A DNA stretch of 64,000 nucleotides from IMG/VR virus record IMGVR_UViG_3300020055_000005, positions 87,190 to 151,189 of that record. One strand, given 5' to 3'. Positions within the stretch are counted from its first letter, which is position 1, and each line of letters opens with the position of its first letter. This document shows positions 7,282 through 53,535 of the stretch, in pieces. A program made the position numbers and the translations under genes. Origin of the DNA: a virus. The notes beneath the pieces were generated by a model. That model was not told the DNA's origin, did no database searches, and was given only the letters and a program-made list of their open reading frames with translations.

Positions 7282-7371
7282 TGGCGGAGAGGGAGGGATT
7301 CGAACCCTCGATACGTTCTCACGTATGCTGGTTTTCAAGACCAGTGCATTCAACCGCTCTGCCACCTCTCC
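7282..7371 (-). tRNA. tRNA-Ser (TGA)
   Basis: Cloverleaf with long variable arm, anticodon loop CT-TGA-AA, TTCGAAT, encoded CCA. Confidence 0.97.
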
Positions 7372-7849: not shown

Positions 7850-7925
7850 TGGTGGAGCTGGAGGGAATCGAACCCACGACCTCCTGAATGCAAATCAGGC
7901 GCTCTCCCAACTGAGCTACAGCCCC
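7850..7925 (-). tRNA. tRNA-Ala (TGC)
   Basis: GGGGCTG acceptor stem with G3:U70, anticodon TGC, CCA. Confidence 0.97.
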
Positions 7926-22882: not shown

Positions 22883-22958
<76 letters not shown>

Positions 22959-22959
<1 letters not shown>

Positions 22960-33954: not shown

Positions 33955-34030
33955 TGGCGATTCCAAGGGGACTCGAACCCCTAATACTACCGTGACAGGG
34001 TAGCGTGTTAACCAATTACACCATGGAACC
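33955..34030 (-). tRNA. tRNA-Asp (GTC)
   Basis: Cloverleaf, anticodon GTC, CCA. Confidence 0.96.
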
Positions 34031-34141: not shown

Positions 34142-34216
34142 TGGTACCCTGTAGGAGAATCGAACTCCTGTTGCATGGATGAAAACCATGTGTCCTAACC
34201 ACTAGACGAACAGGGC
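34142..34216 (-). tRNA. tRNA-Glu (TTC)
   Basis: Cloverleaf, anticodon TTC, CCA. Confidence 0.96.
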
Positions 34217-45142: not shown

Positions 45143-45562
45143 TTAAGAGATTTTGATTGAAACTGGTTTCTTCTCTTCAGGAATCACCCTCTCAAGTGCA
45201 ACACTCAAGATACCATTCTTTAAAGATGCACCTGACACTACAATTTCATCTGATAGTGTAAATGTTCTTTTGAATGATCTAGATGCAAGACCTTTATGAA
45301 TAAAGTCTTGTTCATCTTTTGATTCCACCTTACCTTCGATAGTAAGAATCTCTGCCTCTTTTGAGATTGAGATTTCTTTCTTATCAAATCCTGCAACTGC
45401 AAGTTCCACACGATAATGTTCATCATCGTCTTTCACAATGTTGTAAGGGGGGTAAGAAATATTAGATGGGACTGTTGAAGCCTTTTCTAAAAGTTGAAGA
45501 GTTCTGTCGAACCCAATTGCGAATGGGAATGATCTCCCATAGATATCGTCAAAGATAGTCAT
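45143..45562 (-). CDS. Small heat-shock protein (Hsp20, IbpA-like)
   Basis: IGFDR, YPPYNI, LAVAGF, NGIL. Confidence 0.95.
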   Translation of the reverse strand: MTIFDDIYGRSFPFAIGFDRTLQLLEKASTVPSNISYPPYNIVKDDDEHYRVELAVAGFDKKEISISKEAEILTIEGKVESKDEQDFIHKGLASRSFKRTFTLSDEIVVSGASLKNGILSVALERVIPEEKKPVSIKIS

Positions 45563-45568
45563 TTGTTT

Positions 45569-45585
45569 CTCCTTTAATAAGCAAG
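45569..45585 (-). promoter_or_regulatory. ROSE-like RNA thermometer hairpin
   Basis: CUUGCU opposite SD AAGGAG directly before the sHSP start. Confidence 0.7.
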
Positions 45586-45744
45586 TTTAAATAAAATACC
45601 TAACCTCTTTTGAGCATTAGGGCGTATGTTCTCTTTGCAACCGAGCTTCGAAAAGCTCTTTTGAAGTCACAAAGAGATCATACTAAGTTGTATGATCTCA
45701 TTATATAAAATAATAAATCATACTAAAACTCTCAAATCTGTGTG

Positions 45745-45845
45745 GTAGTAGGATTGTTTATCTTACGAAGAACTCTCCCTTACCTTTCCATCAAGAGGTG
45801 ACTTCCGTAGTAGGATTGTTTATCTTACGAAGAACTCTCCCTTAC
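45745..45845. repeat. Two identical 39-bp direct repeats separated by a 23-bp spacer
   Basis: GTAGTAGGATTGTTTATCTTACGAAGAACTCTCCCTTAC at 45745-45783 and 45807-45845. Confidence 0.95.
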
Positions 45846-45931
45846 TTCAGTCGATGTTCAGAGTGGTATCCAGTAAACTGGTCACTCTTCTATAATGCAG
45901 TCTAAATTAATAAAAAAATAAACTGCATTTT

Positions 45932-45949
45932 TATTTATACATTATAACA
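45932..45949 (-). promoter_or_regulatory. Tandem extended -10 and T4 late promoter
   Basis: TGT-TATAAT followed by TATAAATA. Confidence 0.65.
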
Positions 45950-46057
45950 CACTTTTTTGTGAAAAAAAAGGTATTTTTTTTAATGTTAGAAATTTATTAC
46001 AAATCTTATGGAACCGATTTCGTTTCATAAACTTATCAAATTTTTTGAATAACCTCT

Positions 46058-46354
46058 TCATGCTATCCTCTCAACTAAATCTGAAAATCTACAGGTTTTA
46101 AAACCGTAGGTGCTATACACTTTGTAGGTATTTTTTATGACGTTGCGATTCTCAAAAGATTTCTTTCCTCTGAGACAGTCAGGTGTGAGTATTTGGCCTT
46201 CGTAAAATGACCCATCATGAAGTTCAAATTCTATAACGTTATCTTTATAGAAAATAACTTGTTTCACTTCGGACTTCTTTAGTGTTTTGTCTTCGTCTGC
46301 TGTTGCTGGAAGTCCGAGAAGTAGCAAGGCAGACACTAATGCATATCTTAGCAT
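46058..46354 (-). CDS. Small secreted protein
   Basis: Signal peptide ending ATA; AGGAG SD. Confidence 0.7.
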   Translation of the reverse strand: MLRYALVSALLLLGLPATADEDKTLKKSEVKQVIFYKDNVIEFELHDGSFYEGQILTPDCLRGKKSFENRNVIKNTYKVYSTYGFKTCRFSDLVERIA

Positions 46355-46901: not shown

Positions 46902-47534
46902 TTATCTCTTATTACAAGTACCTTTTACTCTATCAAGAACTTGCATGTTATTATGGACAACCATTGAAGTTAAAAGTATTGGTGCATACAAGTCTTCGTT
47001 TGTAATAGTCACTGCTTCGTGAATTGCACTATAAGAAGGAATAAGAATTACACTCTTTAAAAATAACATTTCACCTAATGTTGGTATACGAGGCAAAAGT
47101 GGATTCAATTCATAAACACAATCATATTGCATACCTTTAGATGTTGACCAAACATCTGCAAGTTGTAATGCAACAAACACTGCCCATACCTCTATATCTG
47201 CTGGTTCTCTAAACTGTATATATGGTAACTTTTTCGGATTTTCCCTTAACAAGGATTCTATCGACTTCTGTAAATGCTGTTGATGGACATAATCTATAAG
47301 TTCTTTCCGATAACAACACTCGTACCCCATCATAATTTCTTGTTTGACCTTCGAGTCTAGCTCCCAAGTTGACGGCATCTCCAATGACGGAATAGTCAAA
47401 TCTAAGTTCTGACCCCATGTTTCCAACGATGCACTCACCTGTAGAGATGCCGATACCGACATCAATAGAAGGAAGACCTTCAACTTCAAGTTCCTTAATA
47501 AGTTCATCCGCCTTAACCGAAATTTCTTGGGCAC
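46902..47534 (-). CDS. Membrane protein, start uncertain (overlaps cyclase gene)
   Basis: LQLADVWST...ELNPLL...K...N hydrophobic domain in the non-overlapped part. Confidence 0.6.
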   Translation of the reverse strand: MPKKFRLRRMNLLRNLKLKVFLLLMSVSASLQVSASLETWGQNLDLTIPSLEMPSTWELDSKVKQEIMMGYECCYRKELIDYVHQQHLQKSIESLLRENPKKLPYIQFREPADIEVWAVFVALQLADVWSTSKGMQYDCVYELNPLLPRIPTLGEMLFLKSVILIPSYSAIHEAVTITNEDLYAPILLTSMVVHNNMQVLDRVKGTCNKR

Positions 47535-49050
47535 TTTTTACTGCCATCTCTGCGTGATCTTCACAGTCCAAGGGAGCATTCCAAAATGCCATGATACAAT
47601 CGCCCATGTATTTGTCGATGGTTCCTCCATTCGACAATATTATTTTTGTCATGGTATCAAGGTATTTATTAATTAACATAACTAACCCTTCAGGGTCATC
47701 ATTATTCTTATAGTGTTCTGATATTGGAGTGAACCCACAGATATCCATAAAGAGGAATGTCATTTCTTTTCTCTGACCACCTAACACTAGCATGTCAGGA
47801 TTATCCTGTAGTTGTTTGACCATCTCAGGAGATAAATACTTTTGGAACTGTTTTCTAATCTGTTCCTTGAGTTGAAATGTCACATAGTATTTGTTATATG
47901 ATGCATGTCCAAAAACAATCAAGGAGGCGATTGATGAGTAGAAAGTATCGAAAAGAACGAGACTTGAAGACCACAAATAGAAACCCCCACCCACCTGAAA
48001 TCCTACAACACCTAGACTCCCTAGAGCCGCAAAAGTTGTGGGAAGTTTGTAGACCATTACCAACACTAATATCAGAACTATCAGAAGAAGAACAACTTCT
48101 AGAAATTCAAGATAGTAGGATTGTTGTATTTGAGCTTCTTGCAAGACGGTTTGGAGGATTGAGGCTTGAACTTCGTGGGGATACATTGTACCCACTGGAG
48201 TTGAAACTGGATTATTCAGACCTTCCGCTGTCAGACCCCAAATCAGAATCTTATTCTGTACATCACTAGAAGGTAAATCTACTGCAGATATTCTTTCGAA
48301 ATCATGCCAATAGGAAATCATAATATCTCCTGTTGGTGTGGTTTCGATAGGAGGTTGTCTCCCCATTCTAATCCATTCTATACCGACTTCCTGTGTAACT
48401 CTTGTTTGATAATTGGGCTGATCATAAAATGCACGTAGTGTCTCTAACACTATAGATGGATATATCTGATCATTTGCAGTAACGATTAGTGGTGCAGAAC
48501 GAACTGTTCCGTCAAAGTTTGGTGTTCCTGCGAATGGTGGTGTTGCAGTTGTTACTCCTACACCATAAGTGTTATCCTGTAAGATAGGAAGTGGTGCAAC
48601 GATTCCTGTAAAGTTCCATACACTATCTTTGATATCTCCACCCCCAAATATAGAAGTGTTAACAAAAGGTGCAGAACCTTTTTGTATTTGTGCAGATGGA
48701 GCTGCAGATAGAATTGTCAACCGATTGATTAATCCTTCGGCGAACATCTCATCTTCGCTGGCGTCTCGGTCAGGTTTACTGAATAATTGTGTAAATACGT
48801 GAGTGTTAGTGTAATGAGTGTCTAAGAGGATATCCCTGTAGATACTACGTTTGATTGGATACTGTCCATACACTTCAAGTGTCTTTTCATCAATATCTAC
48901 TAAAACAATATTCTCCGTCGCCAGGCGTTCTTGAGTCTGATGTAAGAAGTCGAACCATGACCACTGGATATTTTCAACAACGTATGGTGACCAAACCTTC
49001 AGTCCGACCAATAGTGAAATGGTCACTAAGACTGTTTTCCAACTATACAT
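47209..49050 (-). CDS. CHASE2-domain class III adenylate cyclase
   Basis: IVLVDIDE and DGTVR (CHASE2), three TMs, FMDICGFT, DKYMGD, GDAVNLGARLE; Lys/Asp ATP-specifying residues. Confidence 0.93.
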   Translation of the reverse strand: MYSWKTVLVTISLLVGLKVWSPYVVENIQWSWFDFLHQTQERLATENIVLVDIDEKTLEVYGQYPIKRSIYRDILLDTHYTNTHVFTQLFSKPDRDASEDEMFAEGLINRLTILSAAPSAQIQKGSAPFVNTSIFGGGDIKDSVWNFTGIVAPLPILQDNTYGVGVTTATPPFAGTPNFDGTVRSAPLIVTANDQIYPSIVLETLRAFYDQPNYQTRVTQEVGIEWIRMGRQPPIETTPTGDIMISYWHDFERISAVDLPSSDVQNKILIWGLTAEGLNNPVSTPVGTMYPHEVQASILQTVLQEAQIQQSYYLEFLEVVLLLIVLILVLVMVYKLPTTFAALGSLGVVGFQVGGGFYLWSSSLVLFDTFYSSIASLIVFGHASYNKYYVTFQLKEQIRKQFQKYLSPEMVKQLQDNPDMLVLGGQRKEMTFLFMDICGFTPISEHYKNNDDPEGLVMLINKYLDTMTKIILSNGGTIDKYMGDCIMAFWNAPLDCEDHAEMAVKSAQEISVKADELIKELEVEGLPSIDVGIGISTGECIVGNMGSELRFDYSVIGDAVNLGARLEGQTRNYDGVRVLLSERTYRLCPSTAFTEVDRILVKGKSEKVTIYTV

Positions 49051-49307
49051 TATGAAAATTTCTTTTGAATATATTTAAAAATTGCGTAGATTGATAATCC
49101 GTAAAATGCAAGTACGGACATTGGTATACCGATATATGCAAGTTCCCATGGTGATAAAAATAAAATCTCCCATGCAAAGTTTGATGCAGCTTCCACATCA
49201 CCCATTGCTTCAGGCATTGCAATATCATTCTCTACAAATAGGTCTAAAATCTCATCGTATTCTTCTTCGGTGAGACATTCATAAAACTCAGGAGGACACT
49301 CTGTCAT
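49050..49307 (-). CDS. Small membrane protein
   Basis: C-terminal TM; coupled to cyclase start. Confidence 0.7.
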   Translation of the reverse strand: MTECPPEFYECLTEEEYDEILDLFVENDIAMPEAMGDVEAASNFAWEILFLSPWELAYIGIPMSVLAFYGLSIYAIFKYIQKKFS

Positions 49308-50138
49308 TTAGTTTCCCTGAGTTACATTTACAGTGCATCCACCTACGGTGTGACATGTTTGTGTTAATGAATATGTTTGATTAGTGTCACCTGTTTGAGT
49401 CAGAGTTAAATCCGTCCCATAGGTTCCACCTAGTGTTATGGTTGCAGTATGAGCTCCAGTCTTTTTCTGAACAACATGTACTTCATTGTTATCGTTATTG
49501 ATTGTTCCTGTGAGTGTCTTGTTTCCGTTCTGCAATTGTTTTGAGAAGACATCGTTGTAGTCACCATAAATGTTCCAAGTCATGGAATGAGTTATACTAC
49601 TTGAATCTTGTTTCTGACTTCCTTTAAAGTCATTGTAGTCACCATGAATATCTAATCTTACAAAGTTCCCACCAGGCTCTGTTCCATCATAATCCCAAGT
49701 AGGTGTAAGTGAGTTATTAAGTTCATACCCTTGACCAAAGACAACTTGATTGTAATTACCTTGAATGTGGAATTGGAAATCATTGTCATTACATGTTGCA
49801 AAGGAACATCTTTGTCTGATTTCTATATCGTTGTCTTGTCCGTCTAAGTCTCCACCCCAATTATAACCTGAACCCCATGCATCAGTATATCCAATGTACA
49901 TGTTGTTACCTTTTTGAGCTAACTTTATAGTGTTGTCTTGATGATCAAAAGAAAAGAGAACTGTATTTGCAAAACCTTGTTGTGTTACATCTAAATCTAA
50001 ATTATCACCACTATTAACTTGTCTGATATCTATTGAGTTATCGTCTGCGTGGACGACACCAATAAAAAGGATGAATGGCGCCCAAGGCGCCACCCAGTAC
50101 TTGTAAAATAAACGTTTTATTTTATTTAAAAAATCCAT
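49308..50138 (-). CDS. Secreted curlin-like beta-solenoid protein
   Basis: Signal ending VHA; repeated (Q/H/Y)-G-x-x-N units. Confidence 0.75.
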   Translation of the reverse strand: MDFLNKIKRLFYKYWVAPWAPFILFIGVVHADDNSIDIRQVNSGDNLDLDVTQQGFANTVLFSFDHQDNTIKLAQKGNNMYIGYTDAWGSGYNWGGDLDGQDNDIEIRQRCSFATCNDNDFQFHIQGNYNQVVFGQGYELNNSLTPTWDYDGTEPGGNFVRLDIHGDYNDFKGSQKQDSSSITHSMTWNIYGDYNDVFSKQLQNGNKTLTGTINNDNNEVHVVQKKTGAHTATITLGGTYGTDLTLTQTGDTNQTYSLTQTCHTVGGCTVNVTQGN

Positions 50139-50272
50139 GCTAATAATAATCCCAAAACTAGACCTTTTGTGAATGAAATCCACATTGCATGGTACTCTGT
50201 AATTCCAAGTGATTGAATCCACTTGTAACTCCAGTTCTCATGCCAGTCAAGAAGTTTTCTTAAATTATCCAT
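50126..50272 (-). CDS. Small membrane protein (48 aa)
   Basis: AGGAG SD; MDNLRKLLDWHE...WISFTKGLVLGLLLAWIF. Confidence 0.65.
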   Translation of the reverse strand: MDNLRKLLDWHENWSYKWIQSLGITEYHAMWISFTKGLVLGLLLAWIF

Positions 50273-50298
50273 ATAAGTCTCCTAAGTTCCTTTACTAT

Positions 50299-51444
50299 TT
50301 AGTTAGTTTGATTTATAAAAATCTCGATTGCTGGGTCTCCGTTACCGAATTCGATAACACCCTGATAGCCTTCGACATACGTATCTATAAATCCTGAATT
50401 CCCATTCTGTATGATTATCTCAATAACACCGTTTACATTACGATAAAAATATAAGTCTCCGTCTTGTACAAAGACATTGTATTGTGAATCTTTATTGAAT
50501 CCCATAACTGCACCTTTAAGTGTAACAGTTCCACCACCTGAGTCTGCCTGCACATCTTTCAGTGCGACTGTTGTTCTTGTTAACTCTTCTACTACATCTA
50601 ATAGGTCAGTAAGGAAATCAACATCTAATAAATCTATGTCTAATTCTGAAAACTCTAAATCTTCTTTAGTGTCTTCTAATGCATCTTGTTCTAATTCATT
50701 AAACTCAAGGAAATCTACATCTAGTATTCCTTGATCTTGGTCTTGGTCATCTGCAACTTGGTCTTCAATTGCTTGTTTGATTTCTGTAGGTGGATTGACG
50801 ATAAACATATTGTCAATCAATGCAGGTGTGATACCATTTATAACTACAGATGATGTTGGTGGACTATCCAAAGACGATACCATAGTTGCTTGATACGCCT
50901 CATTGAGTGTCACTTCTCCACCTAAGTTTGACACTACTATTTCACCTGATGCATCTCCGTTTGCATCTGGCAAAAGTATAACGAGTGACCTTCCGATCTC
51001 ATCAATACTCGTTGTAAAATCTGTTCCGTTGATTGCGATTTGTGCCGTAGGTGTTGACACATTGATATTTTTCTTTCTGATTTTTTGACCTGTACCTGAT
51101 GCAAATCGAGCTGTACCTTGCACCATTCTGATTGACATTTTGGATAGGTCAGGGTTTGGGTCATAATATGCTTCATCGATATAGACCCTAGTCTGTTCAG
51201 TCATATCAATAAACTCGTTATCCAGTAGAACTATTTTCATTCTACCATTACCAGTTCTTGCCTCATCATAGAGGATGACATCACTACCGACTGAATGTGG
51301 ATATGACTCTGTACCACGTAGGAGTTCACCCACTCCTGTTGATTCTACAATGTCACCAATGGGGTCATTTGCATGAACCCCACTGATAAACAACAAACTA
51401 AGAATCGTTAGCTGAGTCTTTCTGATTAATTTGAATGATCGCAT
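50299..51444 (-). CDS. Secreted FecR-domain protein
   Basis: D..RTG...M..GTARF..G...TPTAQIAINGTDF; start approximate. Confidence 0.85.
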   Translation of the reverse strand: MRSFKLIRKTQLTILSLLFISGVHANDPIGDIVESTGVGELLRGTESYPHSVGSDVILYDEARTGNGRMKIVLLDNEFIDMTEQTRVYIDEAYYDPNPDLSKMSIRMVQGTARFASGTGQKIRKKNINVSTPTAQIAINGTDFTTSIDEIGRSLVILLPDANGDASGEIVVSNLGGEVTLNEAYQATMVSSLDSPPTSSVVINGITPALIDNMFIVNPPTEIKQAIEDQVADDQDQDQGILDVDFLEFNELEQDALEDTKEDLEFSELDIDLLDVDFLTDLLDVVEELTRTTVALKDVQADSGGGTVTLKGAVMGFNKDSQYNVFVQDGDLYFYRNVNGVIEIIIQNGNSGFIDTYVEGYQGVIEFGNGDPAIEIFINQTN

Positions 51445-52138
51445 TGTCACTCGTAATGTCAAGTGTTAAGATTGATGTAGGTGATGAACAACCTGATGCA
51501 CCTGAAGGACAGGTACCTGTTAATTGGTTAATATCTACATCTGCACTATCCCCATCAAGTGTAAAAGTAAGTGATGAGTCACTTGCATCATTTTGTAAAG
51601 TATTAATATTGTTTGAGGAACCAGTGACATCAAAATTCCATGTCAGGTTGTCTGCCTCCCAATCAATATCAAAAACATTCGAACTACCGATCAATATTAG
51701 ATCGGCGTCTAAAGATTCTGCGCTAGTAACATAACCTTGGTCGATATCAAAAGTATTAGAACTTCCAGTTACGTCAAAATTAATGTTAGAGCTATCTGCA
51801 CTGCCGAGATAACCGATGTTCCAATCTATTGAGTTAGAATCTCCAGTGAAGTCCAACTTATAGTATGAACTATCTGCAACAACTGGCCCGAATAGGACGT
51901 TGTTGTTGCCTGTAAAATCTAAATCAAACTCTAATGTTGCACCTGTGATACTCATTGTACTTGATACTGAACCTGAGGAACCATTGTCCCCACCGATTTT
52001 GTTACCAAAACCAACTTGGTCAATATAAAGTTTCAAAGTGTCACCAGTTTGAGTGATCTTAATTTCGTTATCATCAGTGGCTTGTGCGAAAACGAATCCA
52101 GTCGACATTAATAAAATTAAACTAATTAGTTTCTTCAT
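51398..52138 (-). CDS. Secreted curlin-like beta-solenoid protein
   Basis: Signal peptide; repeated x-G-x-x-N units. Confidence 0.75.
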   Translation of the reverse strand: MKKLISLILLMSTGFVFAQATDDNEIKITQTGDTLKLYIDQVGFGNKIGGDNGSSGSVSSTMSITGATLEFDLDFTGNNNVLFGPVVADSSYYKLDFTGDSNSIDWNIGYLGSADSSNINFDVTGSSNTFDIDQGYVTSAESLDADLILIGSSNVFDIDWEADNLTWNFDVTGSSNNINTLQNDASDSSLTFTLDGDSADVDINQLTGTCPSGASGCSSPTSILTLDITSDNAIIQINQKDSANDS

Positions 52139-53033
52139 TTTCGTTATACCCTTTTATTTTCCAAAAACCCCTATGGTGTCCTTGGTAGATTAATTCCAAC
52201 ACTGCAGCCTCAATCGCTGTTCGTGTTGCGTAAGTCACTGATTCATTATTACCCACACCGTCTTCAATCTCTATAAGTTGGGTTCCTTGTTCGACGAATC
52301 TAAAAACATCGCCTCCTGAACCGTAACTCAAAAGAGTTTTCCGAGTTTGTACATTTAGTAAAACTTCTCCAGTGAGAACACTTACTGCTCTCATAGAAAT
52401 TGTGACAACATCTTGTCGATACTGTCTCGAATAACCAATGCCGAGGGTTCTTGCGCCTGTTCCCCCAGTTTTAATATTGGTATCATAGCCAATTATACCA
52501 CCCTCTATTATCATTCCTGCGAACAATAGAGGTTGAATTCCTTTAGGGTCATCCCCTGTTGCAGATGCATACTCCTGTCTTGCAGAACGTATGATCTGTC
52601 TCTCTCTTATTAATGCATCAATTCCATTTCTTTCTACAACACGAAACCATGTTCCGTCTCCTGCAGTTTTTAATGCATCGATAACCATCTCTACTCCACC
52701 TTGTGTTACGGCAGTTGAGAATGATGCAATGTTATCAACAGACTTTCTTTGTCCTGTTTTGTCTAAAAAATTATAGACAGTTACAATTGGTCTCTCTTCT
52801 GCAGGTGGTAGTTTTAAAAGTTCCAAGTAGGAAGGTAACCTAACTACCTGTGGACTTTCTACGCAAATGTATCTACGTGTAACCTGTTTTGCAACACCTG
52901 TAACTACGTCTTTACCAAACCCTTCATCGAACCTACCTGTTTCATAGGCACAGTCTGCTGGGTTATCAGACCACTTTGGGACTGATGCACATCCACTTAT
53001 AAGAAGTGTTAATGCAAGTAAATACTTAACCAT
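52122..53033 (-). CDS. csgG: Curli secretion pore lipoprotein CsgG
   Basis: Lipobox ISGC, VYNFLDKTGQRK, STAVTQG, ERQIIR, EGGIIGYD. Confidence 0.93.
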   Translation of the reverse strand: MVKYLLALTLLISGCASVPKWSDNPADCAYETGRFDEGFGKDVVTGVAKQVTRRYICVESPQVVRLPSYLELLKLPPAEERPIVTVYNFLDKTGQRKSVDNIASFSTAVTQGGVEMVIDALKTAGDGTWFRVVERNGIDALIRERQIIRSARQEYASATGDDPKGIQPLLFAGMIIEGGIIGYDTNIKTGGTGARTLGIGYSRQYRQDVVTISMRAVSVLTGEVLLNVQTRKTLLSYGSGGDVFRFVEQGTQLIEIEDGVGNNESVTYATRTAIEAAVLELIYQGHHRGFWKIKGYNENEETN

Positions 53034-53535
53034 CTCCACCACCAGTGTCAGGGTCTTGTCCAAAGTTTCCTGTTCCTACTGGTATCTCAATGACTGTTGT
53101 TGTTCCTTCGGTATCGATAATAGTCATTTTGATAACATCAGTTCCGTCTGCGTTAGTTATTACCTCCCATGTAATAACACTTCCTTCAAGCGTAAATGAC
53201 CCAAAGTTTGATGCAGTATCATTACTAAACATTGATTCAACTAACTGTTTAGATAGCTGTGCGTAAATTCTCGATTCTAAATTTCTGATAAATTTTGCAA
53301 GCGTGGTATTGTCCGCTTCTCTTTCTGCGGCCTTCCTTGCCGCCTCCAAGGCATCCTCTATTTGTTTCTTCCTTGAGAACTCTTGGTTCTCAATAGTCAA
53401 ATAATGGGCACCTGTACCGACCCCACTAAAGCTGGGGTTCTTAAATCCAAATTTAATTTCGTCTGCATAAACGTTTTGTGCATGTAAGAACAAAACGAAT
53501 ATAATTGCACTACTTACTAATACTTTTTTTAACAT
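53026..53535 (-). CDS. csgF: Curli assembly factor CsgF
   Basis: Signal peptide then FKNPSFSG, resembling the CsgF pore-binding N-terminus; adjacent to csgG. Confidence 0.8.
   Translation of the reverse strand: MLKKVLVSSAIIFVLFLHAQNVYADEIKFGFKNPSFSGVGTGAHYLTIENQEFSRKKQIEDALEAARKAAEREADNTTLAKFIRNLESRIYAQLSKQLVESMFSNDTASNFGSFTLEGSVITWEVITNADGTDVIKMTIIDTEGTTTVIEIPVGTGNFGQDPDTGGGDG

Follow-up and report, generated by a model that had tools for sequence, protein, structure and literature searches.

Two 39-nt direct repeats, 100% identical (positions 45745-45783 and 45807-45845), stand on either side of a 23-nt spacer (45784-45806) upstream of a small heat-shock gene in a marine T4-like phage. Is this layout a CRISPR-like guide mini-array that borrows its effector, as a sequence-only reading of the DNA had proposed, or is it part of the leader of the gene itself? 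The coordinates of the repeats, and the imperfect hairpin that the same reading had drawn on the minus strand, were confirmed in the present analysis, and the identity of the locus was then sought in the alignment of its relatives, in covariation and in searches of viral and cellular genomes. All positions given below are those of the window, that is, the whole stretch of DNA analysed, which comprises the final 64 kb of an IMG/VR virus record of 151 kb; related loci are referred to by L numbers.

The phage record and the surroundings of hsp20

The record is T4-like and carries a family-B DNA polymerase 48% identical to the enzymes of cyanomyoviruses. A curli-like cluster at 47209-53535 of the window encodes CsgG, a curlin-repeat protein and a FecR-domain protein. 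Partial, CsgG-centred curli-like operons have been described in pelagimyophages (PMC7029224). A CHASE2 adenylate/guanylate cyclase gene adjoins the cluster of the window on the same strand, and no mention of such a cyclase was found in that publication. The Rfam scan of the window also located five tRNA genes (Ser-TGA, Ala-TGC, Thr-TGT, Asp-GTC and Glu-TTC) at 7282-7371, 7850-7925, 22883-22959, 33955-34030 and 34142-34216, all of them on the minus strand.

The gene downstream of the repeats, hsp20 (45143-45562, minus strand), encodes an IbpA-like small heat-shock protein of 139 aa (Pfam HSP20, E = 4.7e-18) that shares 44% identity with Escherichia coli IbpA and keeps the equivalent of its Arg93 as R95. 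On the other side of the repeats, a very basic ORF of 39 aa (45942-46061, minus strand) ends within the hsp20 promoter region and overlaps the stop of a 98-aa ORF (46058-46354, minus strand), whose product has a hydrophobic N-terminus resembling a signal peptide. Both ORFs are conserved upstream of hsp20 in relatives (e.g. L005, L007, L191 and L197). A sub-threshold Rfam match to GP20-b (46125-46181, minus strand; 15 bits, E = 2.8) falls inside the 98-aa ORF and is probably due to chance.

The repeats are hairpins of a covarying RNA domain

The degenerate form of the repeat had two matches in the 64-kb window, compared to 0.00 expected from shuffles. G-U pairs and a GNRA loop are available to the repeats on the minus strand only, and the functional strand is therefore taken to be the sense strand of hsp20; the repeat pair is sited between promoter-like sites and the hsp20 ATG (45562). 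Read on this strand, the repeats are the hairpins R1 (45807-45845; fold and covariance-model alignment) and R2 (45745-45783, of the same sequence; covariance-model alignment) of a twin-hairpin RNA domain of ~124 nt, which occupies 45729-45852. Its first half, domain 1 (45800-45852, minus strand), consists of a helix P1 (45849-45852 with 45800-45803) carrying R1, as defined by covariation and independent folds. The second, domain 2 (45729-45797, minus strand), consists of a helix P2 (45791-45797 with 45729-45735) carrying R2, as defined by covariation, folds and alignment, and a single-stranded CCACACARA is conserved 3' of R2.

Each R hairpin is an imperfect structure of 39 nt with a GUAA tetraloop closed by a C-G pair and a variable middle stem. 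Its lower part contains a 2x2 RA/AA internal loop and, at the base, a UAAGGG / CCUACUA stem interrupted by a bulged A and an AC bulge. A covariance model of the hairpin, constructed from six units, recovered 16 distinct units, among which five pairs displayed compensatory changes and the full-length units were free of indels. Across the R units no change was seen in the tetraloop and its closing pair, in the basal motif or in the length of 39 nt, and it was the middle stem that varied.

With a second covariance model, covering the entire twin domain, nine distinct variants were aligned. Both outer helices were 100% paired in this alignment, with compensatory changes at four of the four pairs of P1 and at five of the seven pairs of P2. 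Overall, 88.8% of alignment cells could pair, as opposed to 34-50% in slid-partner controls, and variants that were folded independently assumed the same two-domain shape with differing P1 and P2 sequences. The folding energy of the twin region, or of the repeats alone, was close to that of shuffled sequences (z = -0.6), which means that the structure is supported by covariation and not by energy; the energy of the whole hsp20 leader, with its multiple hairpins, was unusual (z = -7.0).

When the window and ten variant loci were scanned against Rfam 15, by gathering thresholds as well as by E-values, only tRNAs and chance matches were returned and none to the domain, and no description of a twin-hairpin motif of this kind was found in a literature search. 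The domain thus appears to be a conserved, covarying RNA motif that has not been described before. Its fixed length of 39 nt per hairpin fits a reciprocal arrangement, presumed here from tetraloop-receptor rules, in which the GUAA loop of either hairpin docks into G-C pairs of its partner, roughly one helical turn away. Two familiar elements were considered for the R hairpin and dismissed: a k-turn, for which the 3-nt bulge adjoining the G-A/A-A loop is missing, and a RegB-type cleavage site, whose GGAG is not conserved.

The spacer is structural and conserved

According to the alignment of relatives and the covariation of its helix strands, the stretch between the repeats (45784-45806, minus strand) is made up of the GGA of an internal loop, the 3' strand of P1, a 2-nt linker, the 5' strand of P2 and a conserved loop, UGGAAAG. 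The guide mini-array, or an RNA anti-CRISPR, would be loaded into a host or otherwise novel effector or would mimic a host repeat. In its favour it has a formal layout only, namely a 39-nt repeat, a 23-nt spacer and a 39-nt repeat behind promoters, with the minimum of two repeats. Against it stands a spacer composed of strands of the covarying P1 and P2, which is identical to that of the window in L004 (0/23 changes) and differs from it at 1/23 positions in L168 and at 2/23 in L083, that is, in phages whose hsp20 coding sequences are only 69-75% identical. An exact scan of IMG/VR with the spacer retrieved only the same locus in near-identical phages and no protospacer; no match was present in GenBank phages, nor anywhere else in the window at up to three mismatches. 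With an invariant spacer and no protospacer, the guide-array idea fails the test that the sequence-only reading had itself set for it.

The absence of cas genes that the sequence-only reading had stated holds for Cas1, Cas6 and Cas12/TnpB, the families searched across the 151-kb record. No host array came to light either: the exact degenerate repeat pattern had a single match among 185,579 species genomes, located in an archaeal coding sequence and not in an array, which is by our estimate about the number expected by chance, so that the anti-CRISPR variant lacks a repeat to imitate in this set. In addition, the phage resembles pelagimyophages, whose SAR11 hosts are poor in defence systems (PMC7029224), the host assignment being putative. 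The two copies also diverge with compensatory changes, as a hairpin does, unlike a repeat defined by an effector. We put the probability of a guide array or anti-CRISPR RNA at next to nil.

The perfect identity of the two repeats around a unique spacer, initially taken to speak against a simple tandem duplication, is no argument for a guide array once relatives are compared. R1 and R2 differ at up to ~11/39 positions in L172, with compensatory changes among relatives, and given this divergence the identity seen in the window reflects a duplication or conversion limited to the hairpin.

Two further suggestions of the initial reading fared no better. A ToxI-like antitoxin decoy is contradicted by repeats that are split by a structural spacer, and the gene downstream is hsp20 and not one of the ToxN type. 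A sponge for CsrA/RsmA had been proposed on account of four ANGGA motifs; GGA motifs do exist in the window copy, however the only conserved one of them, AAGGG, is base-paired in the hairpin stem. The ACGGA motif is not conserved, the GGA that follows R1 becomes UGA, AAA or UAC in relatives, and AUGGA is retained only in the window-type and L172 variants, where it is placed in an internal loop. Likewise, L178 and L185 have another sequence in place of the UGGAAAG loop, and no GGA occupies a hairpin loop. With its motifs either paired or not conserved, the sponge is disfavoured and appears very improbable.

Architecture of the hsp20 leader

The repeats had been described as following a dual promoter and two hairpins. 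Of this description, an extended -10 promoter-like site, TGTTATAAT (45941-45949, minus strand), and a T4-type late promoter-like box, TATAAATA (45932-45939, minus strand), could be recovered, both by consensus only, together with the hairpins H1 and H2; the sigma-70 promoter was not called by a sigma-70 scan, owing to the poor -35 of the TGTTATAAT site. The latter nevertheless aligns with the TATAAT of hsp20 promoters in relatives, and the late box recurs at the corresponding position of many related hsp20 leaders.

The 5'-terminal hairpin H1 (~45894-45929, minus strand; minimum-free-energy fold) has a GCAGU / ACUGC stem and an AU-rich loop, and its stem is also found with different loops in L172, L183, L168 and L185. 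A leader peptide in H1 was considered and rejected, the short ATG-started frames not being conserved between variants. The adjacent hairpin H2 (~45860-45888, minus strand; fold) varies among relatives, and the region upstream of the twin domain as a whole shows only 42-61% identity between variants.

Downstream of the twin domain, the leader continues with a further domain (45623-45728, minus strand; fold and alignment of relatives) that holds a long-range UUUUAGUAUGA ... CAUACG helix, an extra hairpin, in which a compensatory change was seen in L083, and a UUCG-capped hairpin. It is followed by hairpin H7 (45599-45621, minus strand), present in nearly every related hsp20 leader read, with a stem that covaries among relatives (CCUAA/UUAGG, GUAAU/AUUAC, GUAGA/UCUAC and others). 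The last element is a ROSE-like Shine-Dalgarno hairpin (45569-45585, minus strand; predicted fold), in which UUGCU (45580-45584) is opposite AGGAG (45569-45573) with a bulged G, in line with the definition of ROSE-like thermometers by an imperfect pairing of U(U/C)GCU with the Shine-Dalgarno sequence (PMC3669281). Its predicted shape, two 3-bp stems separated by the bulged G and capped by a 4-nt loop, matches that of the E. coli ibpA hairpin. In computed folds, which are predictions only, the inner stem of the isolated hairpin was lost between 10 and 20 °C.

The promoter or promoters, an H7-type hairpin and the UUGCU/AGGAG hairpin together make up a basal leader that was seen with nearly every related hsp20 read, including the isolates HTVC008M, Mosig and Melnitz, in which the H7 hairpin is present and no R hairpin is found. 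Versions of this basal leader with a late box were observed in the window (45569-45621), in L249, L250 and L251, and in nearly all hsp20 loci read. Between the promoters and the basal unit, optional leader modules differ from phage to phage, and the twin domain is one of them. Another optional module consists of two mutually pairing copies of a 16-nt UUCAAAAGAGCUCGG-like motif with palindromic cores; it was observed at L087 (2390-2470), L013, L017, L105 and L200, and in a reduced form in the window at 45640-45665. The two copies in L087 read GAGCAC and GUGCUC, which constitutes a compensatory pair.

Distribution and probable exchange of the domain

Relatives were collected by repeat-pattern scans of IMG/VR and JGI metagenomes and by hsp20-guided retrieval of loci. 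The domain was identified in 16 contigs, always upstream of hsp20 and on its sense strand, and this includes matches that were obtained from the sequence pattern alone. Covariance-model searches of ~0.8 Mb of loci, of the 151-kb record and of four further contigs detected no copies elsewhere, and blastn of the 501-nt leader against GenBank phages gave no match. Three metagenome matches (L166, L170 and L171) that shared a 20-mer and not its flanks were taken as chance, as was the single archaeal match mentioned above, which comes from the coding sequence of a MAG (L176) and reaches 13 bits.

Nine of the 120 distinct Hsp20 proteins for which the available upstream sequence was long enough had the domain in their leader. 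Its distribution on the Hsp20 tree is patchy, requiring at least five changes of state, four of which are forced by well-supported branches. For each carrier the closest relatives in hsp20, at 76-85% protein identity in the case of the window and 84% in that of L083, are without the domain, which is consequently dispensable for the control of hsp20. The carriers L083 and L168, on the other hand, are more distant from the window in their Hsp20 proteins (61% and 68% identity, respectively).

Despite this distance, the domains of the window, L083 and L168 are 95-97% identical, compared to 69-75% for the hsp20 coding sequences. As the middle stem varies freely in other lineages, this level of identity points to a recent exchange of leader cassettes between phages, and not to absolute constraint.

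The composition of the domain is also variable. The number of R copies ranges from one (L180) to three (L177 and L183), and an unrelated hairpin takes the place of R2 in L177 and L180. Extra truncated R-like hairpins with a UCGUAAG apex were observed in the downstream domain of L177 (1386-1427) and as the 5'-terminal hairpin of L183 (1157-1196). The twin domain of L172 (202-348 on Ga0209503_10000191) looks recombinant: its R1 belongs to the L177 type, whereas its R2 matches that of the window at 38/39 positions and is enclosed by a wholly different P2. A mobile element was considered as a vehicle and rejected: no terminal inverted repeats or target-site duplication were seen in the alignments, and internal modules vary, for which reasons modular recombination is the better description.

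Candidate functions of the twin domain

The domain would be transcribed within the ~370-nt 5' leader of the hsp20 mRNA, as an optional and exchangeable module inserted between the promoters and the shared basal leader, whose ibpA/ROSE-like hairpin is predicted to occlude the Shine-Dalgarno sequence in part. We consider it probable that the twin domain is an accessory, cis-acting module of this leader, which would influence the translation or stability of the hsp20 mRNA. Direct occlusion of the Shine-Dalgarno sequence is impossible at a distance of more than 150 nt. Docking of a protein, judged from the sequence comparisons, is a serious possibility, which we rate somewhat short of even. It is supported by the confinement of the domain to hsp20 leaders, by its invariant loop, bulges and length and by its tolerance of changes in position and copy number; the occurrence of one to three copies, the replaceable R2 and the extra partial copy in L177 fit a docking site that is tolerant of position. 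Recognition by the protein would centre on two sequence-specific parts of the hairpin, the GUAA loop closed by C-G and the bulged UAAGGG / CCUACUA region at the base.

The most attractive ligand would be an oligomeric IbpA-like Hsp20, through which autogenous feedback would be added to the thermosensing Shine-Dalgarno hairpin. In E. coli, IbpA binds its own structured 5' UTR and represses its own translation, with Arg93 being essential (PMC10474464), and it is by this analogy that the phage Hsp20 is tentatively proposed as the docked protein. A conserved arginine at this position is common to most small heat-shock proteins and hence constitutes permissive evidence only for binding by Hsp20. 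Put in terms of the hairpin, and again with considerable reserve, R may serve a stress-sensing protein, likeliest the IbpA-like Hsp20 of the phage itself, as an RNA operator that is recognised by its sequence. Hsp20 oligomers would then nucleate on the twin or multiple hairpins of the leader as long as aggregated clients are lacking, and they would be released under proteotoxic stress during infection. A variant of this model would have the cassette itself released, to titrate a host factor.

The leader exchange deduced from the 95-97% identity of domains next to 69-75% identical coding sequences suits a selfish or trans-acting module equally well. A domain cut out of an abundant early/late leader transcript could act as a decoy or sponge for an RNA-binding protein or nuclease of host or phage, with a role in anti-defence or host takeover, and the hsp20 leader would be a mere landing site, its conserved flanks permitting recombination. 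Such a trans-acting RNA would agree with the patchy distribution (at least four to five gains or losses on the Hsp20 tree), with the near-identity of the domain in otherwise diverged phages, with the mixture of R1 and R2 types in L172, with the change in hairpin number from one to three, and with a domain that close relatives and the isolates HTVC008M, Mosig and Melnitz can dispense with. However, no copy was found outside hsp20 leaders in the loci searched, and no terminator or promoter of its own was found around the domain; both the trans-acting role and the view of the leader as a landing site strike us as unlikely.

The tandem aptamers regulating hsp20 that figured among the early suggestions survive in so far as the hsp20 leader does contain tandem structured elements, while an aptamer for a small molecule is less likely than a protein-docking or structural module. 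Tandem-hairpin architectures are known from the guanidine-II and NAD+-I riboswitches, and two similar hairpins with invariant loop and bulge nucleotides, followed closely by GUAUGAU / AUCAUAC segments capable of alternative pairings, could in principle bind a small molecule or ion cooperatively and tie hsp20 expression to a stress metabolite. Nevertheless, there is no adjacent expression platform: the Shine-Dalgarno sequence follows only after two other domains, at a distance of more than 150 nt, and no terminator was found. The single hairpin of L180 and the third hairpin of other phages are equally at odds with a twin-hairpin riboswitch, hsp20 is not a metabolic gene, and none of the Rfam riboswitches matched, all of which makes this explanation distinctly improbable.

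Somewhat different is the proposition that the domain has no protein ligand other than nucleases and provides RNase III-type processing sites, or a scaffold for the folding or stability of the thermosensing leader. A P helix and its R hairpin stack to about two helical turns with internal loops, and the RNase III sites of phage T7 are likewise of about two helical turns with internal loops. The 5'-terminal hairpin of the leader is also conserved, and the 5' hairpins of ROSE elements offer a precedent, as leaders of this class have 2-4 hairpins of which the 5' members aid folding or stability (PMC3669281). A scaffold, however, needs neither an invariant GUAA loop and basal motif nor an exact length of 39 nt amid stems that covary freely, and we find a purely RNA-based role quite unlikely.

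Significance and relation to known systems

Few auxiliary genes are as widespread among marine T4-like phages as those for small heat-shock proteins, and we know of no account of how phages control them. The shared ibpA/ROSE-like Shine-Dalgarno hairpin suggests that viruses of the most abundant bacteria in the ocean tune translation to temperature or stress, and some lineages have gained on top of it a conserved, covarying twin-hairpin module without a match among curated RNA families. With its fixed length, its variable copy number and the invariant nucleotides of its loop and bulges, this module is a clean candidate for a new unit of RNA-protein recognition. If the operator reading were true, the hairpin would give small heat-shock proteins their first defined RNA operator, also the first in a virus, in the form of a recombining cassette that marine phages swap among hsp20 leaders. 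A false lead is removed at the same time, as there is no cas-less guide array at this locus.

The likeness to phage CRISPR mini-arrays and RNA anti-CRISPRs extends to a repeat-spacer-repeat unit in a phage in which the cas genes searched for were not found. In contrast to these systems, the spacer is invariant and structural here, and no protospacer, host repeat or gene for Cas1, Cas6 or Cas12/TnpB was found. The guanidine-II (mini-ykkC) riboswitch and the HK022 put antiterminator RNA each comprise two similar adjacent stem-loops with conserved loop nucleotides just downstream of promoters. The twin domain differs from both in the loops, sizes and sequences of its hairpins and in tolerating one or three copies, and it has no Rfam match, terminator or adjacent expression platform. 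The RNase III processing hairpins of phage T7 are reiterated, irregular structures in untranslated regions of phage mRNAs; the domain bears no sequence similarity to them, and RNase III sites are not known to have an invariant GNRA loop.

Most closely comparable are the leaders of cellular ibpA genes. The ROSE-like 5' UTRs of ibpA in E. coli and Pseudomonas share with the phage leader a multi-hairpin organisation upstream of an IbpA-type gene and a 3'-proximal hairpin of the same predicted shape, with U(U/C)GCU facing the Shine-Dalgarno sequence and a bulged G. Rfam ROSE models, however, did not match the window leader (E up to 10) or ten variant loci (E up to 1), the phage leader is 3-6 times longer, and its twin GUAA-loop domain is without counterpart in described ROSE elements. 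With the IbpA autoregulation described by Miwa, Cheng and Taguchi (PMC10474464), the locus has in common a structured leader and an IbpA-like protein with an equivalent of Arg93, in a marine phage instead of a gamma-proteobacterial chromosome; no defined operator hairpin of IbpA is known with which the R hairpins could be compared. The twin-hairpin domain is, in sum, a new accessory variant within the known class of structured small-heat-shock leaders.
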